From a virus (Duplodnaviria; Heunggongvirae; Uroviricota; Caudoviricetes): a DNA stretch of 64,000 bases. The stretch spans positions 64,001-128,000 of IMG/VR virus record IMGVR_UViG_3300049215_000772. One strand, 5' to 3'. The notes under the pieces are model-generated. The model ran no database searches. It was not told the DNA's origin and saw only the letters and a program-made list of their open reading frames with translations. Positions within the stretch are counted from its first letter, which is position 1, and each line of letters starts with the position of its first letter. Below are positions 29,221 to 64,000 of the stretch, in pieces. Both the position numbers and the translations under genes were made by a program.

Positions 29221-29423
29221 TGGCTAACTTCAAAATATACGAAGAAATGTTGACTGAATATAACTTCGTGGACGACTTTCAGAAGCCGAACGAGTTGTTC
29301 GAGGCGGAAGCCGACTCCCCTGATGAGGCTTATCGTCAATTTGTTGAACAATTCCCCCACAAGGCCCGCACGCAAGTTATTGTGAAGTCCGGTCGGCTTG
29401 AGAAGCGTTTCGGTCATGACTGA
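29220..29423 (+). CDS. hypothetical protein
   Basis: TAATG overlap. Confidence 0.55.
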   Translation: MANFKIYEEMLTEYNFVDDFQKPNELFEAEADSPDEAYRQFVEQFPHKARTQVIVKSGRLEKRFGHD

Positions 29424-29904
29424 CCTTGCCTTGGGGCACTTTGTTCTTGATGAAGGCCATCCATTCAGGGTGGTGGTAGATGATTAGCTTATGCTTGGCG
29501 TAACAGCAAGCATAAGACATGCAGAAGATTTCTTCGGGGTCTTGGTCCAGGGCGTCGGTCTTCTGAGTTTTTTCCACTTGTTTGGCGTGGGCGTTTTTTG
29601 TTTTCTTGACGAGATCGGCCCACTCCTTCTTGAGTTGTGGCGTCATCAGGTACTCGTAGACCAAGTGGGCAATTTCATGTAACGTCGTGAATTCACGTCC
29701 GTAATTCCACGGCGCAGCTACAGTGATCTTGTCCTTGTAGATCAGCCCAATGTTGCCTTTATCACCTTTCATGGTGTTGCCAGGCTGGTACTTGAACTTG
29801 TAACCATCAAGCAGTTTGGCGTGGCCTGCCGGCAACTTCCGAATCATGGCTGAGACATTTTCTTCTTCTTCGGTTTCCAGAAGGAAATCTTTGAATGTTG
29901 TCAT
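29377..29904 (-). CDS. zincin-like metallopeptidase with capsid-targeting-like N-terminus
   Basis: MTTFKDFLLE; TTLHEIAH (HExxH); downstream PEEIFC. Confidence 0.75.
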   Translation of the reverse strand: MTTFKDFLLETEEEENVSAMIRKLPAGHAKLLDGYKFKYQPGNTMKGDKGNIGLIYKDKITVAAPWNYGREFTTLHEIAHLVYEYLMTPQLKKEWADLVKKTKNAHAKQVEKTQKTDALDQDPEEIFCMSYACCYAKHKLIIYHHPEWMAFIKNKVPQGKVSHDRNASQADRTSQ

Positions 29905-29925
29905 GATGATATATAGCTGTAGAAT
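29898..29925 (+). promoter_or_regulatory. sigma70-like promoter for the downstream ncRNA
   Basis: TTGTCA-16 nt-TAGAAT. Confidence 0.5.
29910..29916 (-). promoter_or_regulatory. putative late promoter box CTATATA
   Basis: 5 nt before ATG 29904, no SD sequence. Confidence 0.5.
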
Positions 29926-29931
29926 GCAGTA

Positions 29932-30363
29932 AATCACGGCCCCGTCAGGGGAGGAGCCGATTGCCTCAAACATCGGGGTGGGTCAGACCAACCTTATCGG
30001 TTCGACGTAGTGTCCTCAACGTAATGAGGCGTGGCGTCCACTAGCCTAGAAAAGTGGATAGGTGACGAAACGACCGAAAACTGACGGAAAGCCCTTGGGA
30101 GCAGCAATCCCATACCGTGAGTAGGAATCTTTGTTGGTCATTACGAATCGTTCATTGCAGCACGTCCTATAGGACGAAGGAAGTTGAGGGTTATTTTGCC
30201 GCATAACCTTCAAAACCCAAGCTGGCTTCCTTCAAGTCTTGGGACCGGCCATCGGTAGTTCGACAGAGTAAGCCTTCCGAGAAAGTTGGCCTGGGCCTCC
30301 CAACCCTGTGATTAACTACGAGATTTCCGGTAAGCCCTGTGTGATAAACACAGGGCTTATTTT
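29932..30363 (+). ncRNA. unassigned structured RNA with two H-type pseudoknots (resembles the tmRNA mRNA-like domain)
   Basis: no long ORF; closing helices 29993-30000/30327-30334 and 30006-30011/30315-30320; pseudoknots at 30037-30063 and 30176-30243. Confidence 0.6.
30331..30363 (+). terminator. rho-independent terminator
   Basis: TAAGCCCTGTGT-GATAA-ACACAGGGCTTA-TTTT. Confidence 0.85.
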
Positions 30364-30406
30364 ATTCTGAGGGATATATACTTCTGAGCCAGCTACAGGA
30401 GGTAAC

Positions 30407-30976
30407 ATGGCACGGAAGATCATTTGCACCGTTCCTCAAGGTGCCATCAAGACAGAAGTTCTTGATGTAAGACAAAACACCAACTTTTCTTGCGGCGCTG
30501 CCGCACTTCATGCTGTTTGTGCATATTGGGGCGTCGGACCAGAAAGTGAATACGACTACATGAAGTCGCTTCACTCCGATCCCAGCATGGGTACGACCCC
30601 GCAACACATCATTGAATATGCAAAGCATCGTGGTTTGAAAGTTGATGCGAGGGATTGTATGACTGTTTTGGACCTGAAGACCCATCTCGACAAGGGCCGT
30701 CCCGTCATCGTTCTCATTCAGGCGTGGGGCGACAAGAAGCGCTATCGAGACTATGATGAGAATGGACACTATGTCGTGGCTATTGGCTACGACGATAAGC
30801 GAATTTACTTCGAGGAGCCTGTAATGTTGGGACACCGGGCATTTCTCACCTACAAGGAGTTCGACGAGCGTTGGCACGACGAGGACGCTTTTGGTAGGAA
30901 GTATATTCGTTATGGCATGGCTATGTGGAAGAAAGGAAAGCCGAGCCTGATTCATCAGGCAGAAAAGATCGGTTGA
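30407..30976 (+). CDS. C39-like papain-fold cysteine peptidase
   Basis: QNTNFSCGAAAL, GHYVVAIGYD, YFEEP. Confidence 0.85.
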   Translation: MARKIICTVPQGAIKTEVLDVRQNTNFSCGAAALHAVCAYWGVGPESEYDYMKSLHSDPSMGTTPQHIIEYAKHRGLKVDARDCMTVLDLKTHLDKGRPVIVLIQAWGDKKRYRDYDENGHYVVAIGYDDKRIYFEEPVMLGHRAFLTYKEFDERWHDEDAFGRKYIRYGMAMWKKGKPSLIHQAEKIG

Positions 30977-30990
30977 TACTTAACTACATC

Positions 30991-31176
30991 ATGCAACCAG
31001 TGTTAGACTCGATCAGACGCTTGTGGGAAGGGAACGGCTTCAGGATGGAGATCAAAGACGCTCCGAATGGAGCCGTGACCTTCGACAAGATGTTGATAGT
31101 ATTCAACGAATCCAACAAGATTCGCTCTCTGTATTTTTACTCTTCCAAAGAGGACAAAATCCTTGGGTGCTTCTAA
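30991..31176 (+). CDS. hypothetical protein
   Basis: short ORF, start moved to ATG 30991. Confidence 0.5.
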   Translation: MQPVLDSIRRLWEGNGFRMEIKDAPNGAVTFDKMLIVFNESNKIRSLYFYSSKEDKILGCF

Positions 31177-31187
31177 ATAAGGGTATC

Positions 31188-31880
31188 ATGGCAAAGAAAA
31201 ACACACCCGCAACGAAGTCCGAACACAAAGCAGGAGGCAAGCGGTCGGGTCCGTTCCACCTGGAATTTCTCAACCAGGCACAAAAAATGGCCTGGGGAGC
31301 CTTCGACCAACATGACGTACTTTTCCTTCTCGGCCCAGCGGGGTGTGGTAAAACGCACCTTGCTTGCGCTTTCGCCATCAGTGAACTTCTCGCCAAGAAG
31401 AAACGCAAGATCGTACTAACCCGCCCTATTGTGGAAGCCGGCGAAAGCCTTGGCTATTTGCCGGGCACGTTTGACGAGAAGGTGAATCCCTACATGATGC
31501 CGATGTATGATTGCATCGAGAAAATGCTCGGTCCCACCTATGATGGCAACTCGCAGCGGGAGCAAATTAACCGTGCGATGGAAGTGGCCCCGATAGCGTA
31601 TATGCGGGGTCGTACATTTGACAATGCCGTGTGTATCTTCGACGAGGCTCAAAATGCTACGAGGATGCAGTTGAAGCTGTTCATGACCCGTTTCGGCGTG
31701 AACTCCAAGATCATTATCACGGGCGACCCAATGCAAAGCGACATTCGTGACCCTGCTTTGATGGATGTCGTCAAGAAACTTGAGGATTTGCAGGGAATTG
31801 GGGTTATCCACTTCAAGGCCAATAGCATTGTGCGGCACCCGTTGATTGCCAACATCCTCGAAAGGCTGGAGGACAAGTAA
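31188..31880 (+). CDS. phoH: PhoH-like ATPase
   Basis: GPAGCGKT, RPIVEAGESLGYLPG, YMRGRT, DEAQN, GDPMQSD; CTAAATA at 31173-31179. Confidence 0.95.
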   Translation: MAKKNTPATKSEHKAGGKRSGPFHLEFLNQAQKMAWGAFDQHDVLFLLGPAGCGKTHLACAFAISELLAKKKRKIVLTRPIVEAGESLGYLPGTFDEKVNPYMMPMYDCIEKMLGPTYDGNSQREQINRAMEVAPIAYMRGRTFDNAVCIFDEAQNATRMQLKLFMTRFGVNSKIIITGDPMQSDIRDPALMDVVKKLEDLQGIGVIHFKANSIVRHPLIANILERLEDK

Positions 31881-62657: not shown

Positions 62658-62728
62658 TGCGGTTTAGAGGAGTGGTCCCTTGCCAGGCTCATAACCTGGA
62701 GACGCTGGTTCAAATCCAGCAGCCGCAA
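62658..62728 (+). tRNA. tRNA(CAT), elongator Met or Ile2
   Basis: full cloverleaf, CCAGG/CCTGG anticodon stem. Confidence 0.9.
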
Positions 62729-62730
62729 CT

Positions 62731-63000
62731 AAGGTGACTCGTTGTCGCCTGCTTTACGAAAGACACGCCCTGCGGGGCACAAGTGGAGCTAGTACAATGT
62801 CTTGTTTCGCACGGACTCAGTGGCATAACGAACGTGGGCAAAATCAGCCCCGTCCGACGCCGTGCGCCGGTAAGCCTGTACAGCCAAATACCATTTGCAC
62901 CGTCGAAGATAAAGCAGCCATCGAGTCCTAAACCGCCACAAGCTGGCCGGTGAGGGACGAAAAATCCTGAGCCGGTAAGCTGAGATAACCGTAAATCACA
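62731..63000 (+). ncRNA. unassigned roughly 270-nt RNA
   Basis: no credible ORF; hairpins; CCGGTAAGC twice; ends at a terminator. Confidence 0.4.
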
Positions 63001-63002
63001 GC

Positions 63003-63045
63003 AACCCCTGCTCAGGAGAGAAGTCTCCAGTGCAGGGGTTTTTTG
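63003..63045 (+). terminator. rho-independent terminator
   Basis: AACCCCTGC...GCAGGGGTT-TTTTG with inner GGAGA/TCTCC. Confidence 0.8.
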
Positions 63046-63087
63046 TTGGAATACATCGAGATACGGCAGGCCAGAACCGACAGGAGT

Positions 63088-63315
63088 ATGAAGAAGGTTT
63101 CGGACCTGATTGAAGATTTGAAAAAATTTCCGCCTGACGCATACGCTGCGGCGTACTCAGCAGAAGCAACAGGCATTGTGATCTACCCGGAGACGTTCGG
63201 AATTTACGACTTCTGGAATGATCCGAGGGCTGAGAAGGCAGACGAGAGCGTAGGGTTCATTGACTTGTACTACTACGATCCTCGAACCGACAAGGAGAAA
63301 GAACATGACTTATAA
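63088..63315 (+). CDS. hypothetical protein
   Basis: AGGAG RBS; MKKVSDLIEDL. Confidence 0.65.
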   Translation: MKKVSDLIEDLKKFPPDAYAAAYSAEATGIVIYPETFGIYDFWNDPRAEKADESVGFIDLYYYDPRTDKEKEHDL

Positions 63316-63339
63316 ACGCACCCCCATCCACGCAATTAT

Positions 63340-63413
63340 GGGGCTGTAGCTCAAGTGGGCAGAGTACCCGCCTTTTAAGCGGAGGGATGTCGGATCGTGG
63401 CCGACCGGCCCTA
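63340..63413 (+). tRNA. tRNA-Lys(TTT) with non-canonical T loop ATCGTGG
   Basis: acceptor, D and T stems pair; loop CT-TTT-AA; C27:A43 mismatch. Confidence 0.75.
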
Positions 63414-63429
63414 CTCAAACAGGTGACGG

Positions 63430-63915
63430 ATGTTGAAGGTTTCGGAGACAACGAATCTCGGAGAAACTAGCCCGATACAAGGGCATCTGGAAATGGTGGA
63501 TGACCTGGTAAAACACCAACACGGCTGGGCCGTGATTCACCGAAAACTTCCAGTTGAAGAAATCTACGCCGGATTCCTCACCCACCTGGGGCATCCGGTC
63601 AGGAAGCGAAGGGTGGACGAAGATGAAGTGAGGGCGTACTCGAAGTGGTTGAAGGATAACGGCGAGCCGGTGTTCTCAACTATCATCGAGGGCATGAGAG
63701 AACGAGGAAAAACCCCTCATGCCATTAGGATTACGATGATGTTCCTGATCGCCAATTTGGAATGGTTGAAAGAAAAAGAAGCCCTGGAGGGAAGAAACCG
63801 AAGCATAGATGATGGTTCTGTTGGCGAAGCGCCTATAGCTCAATTGGTAGAGCAACAGACTTTTAATCTGTGGGTTCCGAGTTCGAGTCTCGGTGGGCGC
63901 ACAAAACGGCCTTAG
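63430..63915 (+). CDS. hypothetical protein whose frame runs through tRNA-Lys
   Basis: AGG upstream; protein-like composition up to about 63828. Confidence 0.55.
   Translation: MLKVSETTNLGETSPIQGHLEMVDDLVKHQHGWAVIHRKLPVEEIYAGFLTHLGHPVRKRRVDEDEVRAYSKWLKDNGEPVFSTIIEGMRERGKTPHAIRITMMFLIANLEWLKEKEALEGRNRSIDDGSVGEAPIAQLVEQQTFNLWVPSSSLGGRTKRP
63829..63901 (+). tRNA. tRNA-Lys(TTT), canonical
   Basis: full cloverleaf, T loop TTCGAGT. Confidence 0.95.
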
Positions 63916-63976
63916 TTGTAACGGTGCATATCGCTCTGATAAGGCGACGGATCGGGTTCGACTCCCGGAAGGCCGA
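63907..63976 (+). tRNA. tRNA-Ile(GAT)
   Basis: 7-bp acceptor CGGCCTT/AAGGCCG, loop CT-GAT-AA, T loop TTCGACT; A8. Confidence 0.85.
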
Positions 63977-64000
63977 CTGAAACAAGCGATCCTATTTTGG

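Follow-up and report, generated by a model that had tools for sequence, protein, structure and literature searches.

Comparison among homologues indicates, to a degree that we count as shown, that the region 29898-30363 of an uncultured huge phage holds an RNA gene on the + strand, which is non-coding, conserved as a family and established in most of its helices. The window, that is, the whole stretch of DNA that was analysed, is 64 kb long and belongs to a 134-kb fragment of the phage genome (CheckV completeness 27%). The gene would rather probably be a free-standing one for a structured non-coding RNA of ~430 nt (29933 to ~30362, +), which represents an uncatalogued family and acts in trans through its fold. 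The features that make up the gene and its surroundings are listed in Table 1.

Table 1. Predicted elements of the RNA gene and neighbouring features (window coordinates)
Feature	Position	Strand	Remark
Promoter-like site TTGTCA-16 nt-TAGAAT	29898-29925	+	consensus scan, 10/12 matches
P-alpha, 5' strand ATCACGG	29933-29939	+	pairs with 30115-30121, closes the 5' domain
P1 hairpin CCCC GTCA GGGG	29940-29951	+	3/4 pairs changed on both sides (n=15)
P2 hairpin with conserved 10-nt loop TGCCTCAAAC	29957-29976	+	C-G/U-A and A-U/G-C covariation in the closing pairs
P3 hairpin of variable sequence and length	29977-29993	+	by eye; missing from the shortest members only, letters differ
Pseudoknot 1	30037-30063	+	stem 1 30037-42/30053-58; stem 2 30044-48/30059-63
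Unpaired conserved block ACGGAAAGC	30084-30092	+	CGG..AGC invariant in 15 sequences
H5 hairpin with near-invariant loop GCAGCAA	30096-30112	+	95.6% paired, 4/6 pairs changed on both sides (n=15)
P-alpha, 3' strand CCGTGAG	30115-30121	+	directly after the H5 hairpin
P-delta	30124-30130 / 30321-30328	+	79% paired, 4/7 pairs changed on both sides (n=4)
P-gamma	30133-30141 / 30308-30316	+	97% paired, 5/9 pairs changed on both sides (n=4)
Pseudoknot 2 region	30176-30243	+	stem 1 30176-83/30226-33; stem 2 30216-21/30238-43
Pseudoknot 2 inner hairpin	30186-30211	+	
Invariant CCAAGCTGG	30217-30225	+	in the pseudoknot 2 region
Intrinsic terminator	30329-30361	+	11-14 bp stem, then T-rich tail
TATATAC box, candidate phage-type promoter	30375-30381	+	between the terminator and the next gene
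C39-like cysteine peptidase gene	30407-30976	+	PF13529, E 9.5e-15; between the RNA and phoH
phoH (context, outside the RNA)	31023-31880	+	PF02562, E 7.5e-65

The RNA lies in an intergenic gap (29905-30406) between the C39-like peptidase gene and, on the opposite side, a gene of 175 aa (29377-29904, -) whose product is small, has no Pfam match and is putatively zincin-like. Fifteen further copies of 274-497 nt were found in uncultured huge-phage contigs, which gives 16 with that of the window. They were collected by searching IMG/VR with the protein of the small upstream gene, by a 23-mer scan of JGI metagenomes and by a motif scan of IMG/VR; in addition, loci from among the 154 relatives of the upstream protein were looked up in ENA, Logan and NCBI assemblies. 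The contigs come from moss, lake and sediment metagenomes. In every copy the RNA adjoins the small zincin-like gene. Because homologues were found via this upstream gene, adjacency to it holds by construction. The RNA of the closest relative (L078) is 92.6% identical to that of the window, and four short members do not have the whole pseudoknot 2 region. Other routes to relatives brought almost nothing: an IMG/VR search with the C39-like peptidase found none, GenBank phages gave no BLAST match to the region, the 18-mer taken from the 5' block matched coding DNA by chance only, except for the L009 contig, and a 16-mer from the central block returned ~40 chance matches.

On the downstream side, phoH follows on the same strand in 15 of the 16 copies (the window and 14 of the 15 others), directly or after one small gene. 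In the remaining copy (L222), a 328-aa gene without Pfam match stands in its place. The gene immediately 3' of the RNA varies by member and may be the C39-like peptidase gene, a 62-aa ORF that precedes phoH (L079 and L218), phoH itself or the 328-aa gene. Of the members fetched, only the window, its closest relative (L078) and the P0003 contigs have the RNA separated from phoH by the C39-like peptidase gene. At one locus (L081:1-1117, -), phoH is called as 573 aa and has a weak LAGLIDADG_3 match besides PhoH, which suggests an intein or a homing-endonuclease insertion. Elsewhere in the window, a tRNA cluster occupies 60398-63977, with seven tRNAs by ARAGORN; it includes a 96-nt tRNA-like gene (60474-60569) for which ARAGORN calls a four-base anticodon, and a tRNA at 61596-61668 comes from Rfam and is missing from the ARAGORN list.

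Several observations bear on whether the region is coding and on which strand is used. No ORF in 29898-30363 is conserved across the homologues. Pairwise comparisons revealed neither a third-position excess nor codon periodicity, and insertions and deletions are mostly of 1-2 nt. The initial annotation had pointed to a tag-like mini-ORF, DGKPLGAAIPYRE followed by a stop; the aligned frame runs for 4-49 codons across the homologues, is shifted by the 1-2 nt indels from one homologue to another, and has neither a common nor a hydrophobic end. The missing third-position excess, the short indels and a mini-ORF without a shared end together mark the region as non-coding. The + strand folds better than its shuffles (z -2.8). 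Furthermore, G-U cells outnumber A-C cells in the tested pairs (20 vs 6), a bias that an RNA with the + strand sequence would produce.

These counts also bear on a reading in which the region works at the level of DNA, as a replication origin, a packaging site or a recombination site, or is a decaying spacer without RNA function. Such a reading fits in so far as the region is intergenic and divergent, and relatives hold the RNA, other inserts or nothing at this place. However, compensatory changes keep RNA pairs, the surplus of G-U over A-C fits one transcribed strand, the -10-like site and the terminator are oriented and conserved, and loops stay invariant among members that are merely ~50% identical overall. 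A DNA element or spacer is thus very unlikely in our estimate.

The fold itself was examined by two covariation tests. The first used a 15-sequence alignment of the 5' half with five helices and 27 pairs: 91.7% of cells were paired, against 81.2% in shuffles, and 18 of the 27 pairs had changed on both sides, a count that 0 of 500 shuffles reached. When the partners were slid by 1-3 columns as a control, pairing was 32-52%. The second used an alignment of four full-length members with 43 pairs, where 94.2% of cells were paired and 21 pairs had changed on both sides (0/500 shuffles reach this), with no more than 48% pairing for slid partners. Compensatory changes on the + strand were therefore found in both alignments (n=15 and n=4), which was the outcome of the covariation check that the initial annotation had proposed. 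RNAalifold, run on the four full-length members, independently recovered P-alpha, together with P-delta and P-gamma.

In the architecture that these changes support, the 5' end of the RNA pairs with 30115-30121 and encloses P1, P2, P3, pseudoknot 1 and H5 as a 5' domain. The 3' domain is closed by pairing of 30124-30141 with 30308-30328; inside it lie the invariant CCAAGCTGG and a long helix with its inner hairpin. The two tandem closed domains are followed by the hairpin of the terminator. P-alpha has 96% of its cells paired, and six of its seven pairs changed on both sides (n=15); its two strands read ATCACGG/CCGTGAG in the window, ACTACGA/TCGTAGC in L079, GTCATAG/CTATGAC in L082 and ATCACAG/CTGTGAT in L222. 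P-gamma was also seen in an alignment-free search, which placed it at corresponding positions, in letters that differ, in the window, L078, L079, L081 and L084. Among the hairpins, P1 has GNRA or UUCG loops in the homologues, the P2 loop letters GCC..AAAC are nearly invariant, and H5 has an invariant loop closed by two invariant pairs.

The sequence elements named in the initial annotation, including the terminator at 30329-30361, two copies of TTCGAC, GAAGGAAG/CTTCCTTC and the mini-ORF, all lie where it had placed them, and the two pseudoknots that it described were borne out in part. In pseudoknot 1, stem 1 (TCCACT/AGTGGA) is fully paired, with five of its six pairs changed on both sides (100% paired, n=4), whereas stem 2 (GCCTA/TAGGT) forms all five pairs solely in the window, L078 and L218. 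The 3' strand of stem 2 is shared with a hairpin, GGT 30061-63/ACC 30073-75, that covaries as U-A, C-G and U-G. Since stem 2 competes with this covarying hairpin, it is a lineage-limited or alternative pairing. Pseudoknot 2 presents a similar division: stem 1 (GAAGGAAG/CTTCCTTC) is kept with 8/8 pairs in different letters in 6 of the 9 long homologues, whereas stem 2 (CCCAAG/CTTGGG) is lineage-limited, with 6/6 pairs in the window only, 5/6 in L078 and L079, and no such stem elsewhere. Three other pairings were considered and set aside. GTGACGA 30062-68/TCATTAC 30138-44 looks good by eye but overlaps P-gamma, for which covariation is stronger; GCAA of the H5 loop could form a kissing contact with TTGC of the P2 loop, but the one variant pair (L083/L084, by eye) contradicts it; and P-delta took the place of a closing pairing between GGAG, 3' of P1, and TCC, 5' of the terminator.

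One of the two readings in the initial annotation was a tmRNA-derived RNA. It would be an mRNA-like domain without tRNA-like domain that serves as a decoy for SmpB or the ribosome, or one piece of a split tmRNA. The letters of the window by themselves invite this thought, with GGTTCGAC, a short ORF and, after a pseudoknot, an A-rich stretch, and the RNA resembles tmRNA (SsrA, RF00023) and two-piece tmRNAs in size, pseudoknots and long-range helices. Unlike them, it matches no tmRNA model, has no tRNA-like domain and conserves neither a tag frame nor UUCGAC. The initial annotation was right that a tRNA-like domain is absent: ARAGORN and Rfam both give no match, and no acceptor stem, T arm and 3' CCA context of the kind described by RF00023 and RF01849-RF01851 was found. 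The other tmRNA hallmarks fared no better, as neither a tag frame with a resume codon and a hydrophobic ..ALAA-type end nor a conserved 5' GGAUUCGAC-type element with an end-joining helix 2 was found. The GGTTCGAC motif is not conserved, with TTAGAC in place of TTCGAC already in the closest relative and no counterpart in other homologues. The end-pairings that had been proposed as helix-2-like (CTTATCGG/CCGGTAAG and CGTAGT/ACTACG) fail, being 66% paired, which is the level of shuffles (141/500 reach it), and they overlap the covarying P-gamma and P-delta.

The phage also has a tmRNA of its own. A canonical complete tmRNA (RF00023, 103.5 bits) lies at C1:47560-47923 (L002:1501-1864), 46 kb upstream of the RNA and outside the window, and it is the only RF00023 match in the whole genome; its tag, read from the sequence, ends in ..FAMAA. 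That huge phages encode tmRNA is known (PMC7162821). Related phages likewise have full tmRNAs (129.7 bits in G018; 104-120 bits in G008, G010 and G017), which occur with or without the RNA, and there is no tmRNA match at the phoH locus. An SmpB gene was not found in the 134-kb fragment. One further point could be taken for a tmRNA connection, namely a perfect complement of 12 nt between 30225-30236 and positions 135-146 of the phage's tmRNA, a length that 0 of 100 shuffles reach. In terms of structure, it joins the 3' strand of pseudoknot 2 stem 1 to L002:1635-1646, just 3' of the tmRNA tag. However, between the RNA and the tmRNA of G018 nothing above chance was found, and the complement sits in a stem whose letters covary among homologues; as it is not repeated in G018, it is probably due to chance. 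Judged by these comparisons of sequence and predicted fold, the RNA is not a tmRNA relative and the tmRNA-like letters in the window are chance; a tmRNA-derived decoy or split piece is, in our view, extremely improbable.

Known families offered no other home for the RNA. With Rfam 15, nothing was found at the RNA locus at the gathering score in the window, 861 bases searched at E up to 10 gave no match, tmRNA included, and eight homologue loci searched at E up to 5 gave chance-level unrelated matches only. The Rfam 15 models for GOLLD, ROOL, OLE, raiA, HEARO, RNase P, SRP, 6S and group I/II introns had no match, and an ARAGORN tmRNA search of the window found none. The check proposed at the outset, against tmRNA, ROOL, GOLLD and RNase P, hence produced no match to tmRNA or to an unrelated family. 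With no Rfam 15 match, the alternative that the initial annotation had offered, a new RNA class, holds for this conserved, covarying, multi-helix RNA. GOLLD, ROOL, OLE and raiA are large, 'ornate' non-coding RNAs, several of them borne by phages or prophages, with GOLLD and ROOL in phages. The RNA described here is like them in being large for its kind, highly structured and lineage-restricted, and in having long-range helices, pseudoknots and GNRA loops; it is smaller than GOLLD, ROOL and OLE, consists of two tandem closed domains and occurs in ~0.5-Mb uncultured phages.

The distribution of the family was followed with a core covariance model of 65 positions (R1), which was used instead of a full 5'-domain model because several helices were misaligned by MAFFT. 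This genome, G001 and G018 gave R1 scores of 70-81 bits; in 16 other records of related huge phages the score did not exceed 19.5 bits, and the core motif is absent from them. No match to R1 was found in 151 Bacteroidota and 151 Pseudomonadota genomes. A motif scan of 185,579 species genomes gave at least 120 matches, and among the matches listed nhmmer extended none beyond the motif. The RNA is likely absent from bacteria. Confinement of the family to a subclade of ~0.5-Mb uncultured phages is one component of the favoured reading, and the modest preference that we give to that reading taken whole extends to it. In related phages, the site before phoH is found in three states, with the RNA, with another non-coding insert or with no insert. 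Inserts of the second kind, which have terminators and are unrelated in sequence, lie at L015:2601-3000, L016:2591-2880, L018:2662-2998, L022:2501-2998 and L024:2871-2998; those in L015, L016, L018 and L022 were excluded as family members by nhmmer, the motif and R1. The site is without insert in the close relatives L013, L014, L019 and L080.

How the RNA is transcribed is suggested by the elements at its two ends. The promoter proposed in the initial annotation is present in the window (TTGTCA at 29898-29903, TAGAAT at 29920-29925), and its -10 part is conserved: a TATAAT-like hexamer is kept 0-7 nt 5' of the first paired base in most homologues. The TTGTCA-like hexamer at the canonical 16-nt spacing did not hold up beyond the window and its closest relative, the spacing being variable elsewhere. 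The 5' end of the RNA was placed solely from the -10-like hexamer. In three members no nucleotide separates this hexamer from the first paired base, too short a distance for a standard sigma-70 start. In several members (e.g., L084:1459-1500 and L081:1460-1500, on the - strand of the loci), the TATAAT hexamer is preceded at 2-9 nt by a conserved TTTTTGTCG-type stretch, which is too close to be a -35 element. At the other end, a comparable terminator hairpin with a T run closes every homologue.

Beyond the terminator, a different kind of signal appears. In the 60 nt before the ORFs of this genome, TATATAC and CTAAATA are the most enriched 7-mers, Shine-Dalgarno sequences aside, with 7 occurrences of TATATAC against 0.7 expected and 6 of CTAAATA against 0.5 expected. 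The homologues have CTAAATA at the spot that matches TATATAC at 30375-30381 of the window. Both boxes are similar to the T4 late box TATAAATA, and they are candidates for phage-specific promoters. A candidate box of this type also occurs at 29906-29916 (-) of the window.

The main rival reading assembles the same elements into a cis-acting leader, in which the region would be the 5' UTR of a phoH operon and the terminator a regulated attenuator, riboswitch-like or protein-controlled, before the peptidase gene and phoH. A promoter, a conserved fold and a terminator followed after 40-70 nt by a gene on the same strand speak for it, as does phoH at no more than 1 kb in 15 of the 16 copies. In the window, moreover, the base of the terminator stem (30329-30334) can instead pair with 29993-30000, but this alternative pairing is not conserved and a search by eye found no conserved anti-terminator. 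A leader would also be expected to stay with its gene; the gene directly downstream differs among members, and close relatives have phoH without a leader. The ORF-associated boxes between the terminator and the next gene suggest that this gene has a promoter of its own, and a size of up to 497 nt with two closed domains is unusual for an attenuator. Taken together, a leader is possible but doubtful. The differing downstream gene, the boxes and the RNA's own terminator favour a free-standing RNA, and the -10-like hexamer, the box before the next gene and, again, the differing downstream gene point to a separate transcription unit. The RNA would then have a promoter of its own and be a discrete transcript.

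A free-standing RNA of this kind may act in trans via its fold and the invariant loops GCAGCAA, GCC..AAAC, ACGGAAAGC and CCAAGCTGG, and would most likely be the RNA part or the ligand of a protein. The neighbouring PhoH-type ATPase would be the leading candidate partner, although the link is weak: the adjacency could be a matter of synteny alone, phoH occurs in relatives that do not have the RNA, and a PIN domain is missing. In the phage PhoH proteins (198-285 aa), Pfam found matches to PhoH and P-loop families only and none to a PIN domain. The phoH adjacency may merely reflect conserved gene order. The RNA is not needed by PhoH in cis, given that the four close relatives with an empty site have phoH without it. 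phoH is a widely used viral marker gene, and we know of no established function for phage PhoH.

There is a parallel in bacteria, where a preprint reports lineage-specific structured RNAs adjoining PhoH2 genes; these PhoH2-associated RNAs form COMPASS clusters (e.g., #1,412,455, ~360 nt) that are non-homologous (bioRxiv 10.64898/2026.10.21.760802). Like the phage RNA, they are long, multi-stem and covarying, lack a known family and lie on the same strand as the gene for a PhoH-family ATPase, and at both the bacterial PhoH2 and the phage phoH sites the RNA architecture differs by lineage. A structured RNA directly beside a PhoH-family gene is what 15 of the 16 phage copies show. The bacterial neighbour is PhoH2 (PIN_4 and PhoH), whereas that of the phage has the PhoH domain only. 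The two groups of RNAs are compared here by description, and R1 has no match in the 302 bacterial genomes. From this analysis, the RNA as a dedicated partner of the phage PhoH ATPase, be it a cofactor, a substrate mimic or a regulator, is a candidate that we rate as distinctly unlikely.

Large RNAs that keep an elaborate fold are, to our knowledge, rare, and each class that has been solved proved fundamental or unexpected. This one is carried by phages with genomes of ~0.5 Mb, in which tRNAs and tmRNA are encoded as well. If the PhoH partnership were true, huge phages and bacteria would have repeatedly paired PhoH-family enzymes with ornate RNAs of their own, and the different RNAs at the same spot in related phages would be interchangeable versions of that partnership. 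A defined RNA-protein pair would make the question of what PhoH-family ATPases target directly testable, and would provide the first experimental handle on the role of phage PhoH.
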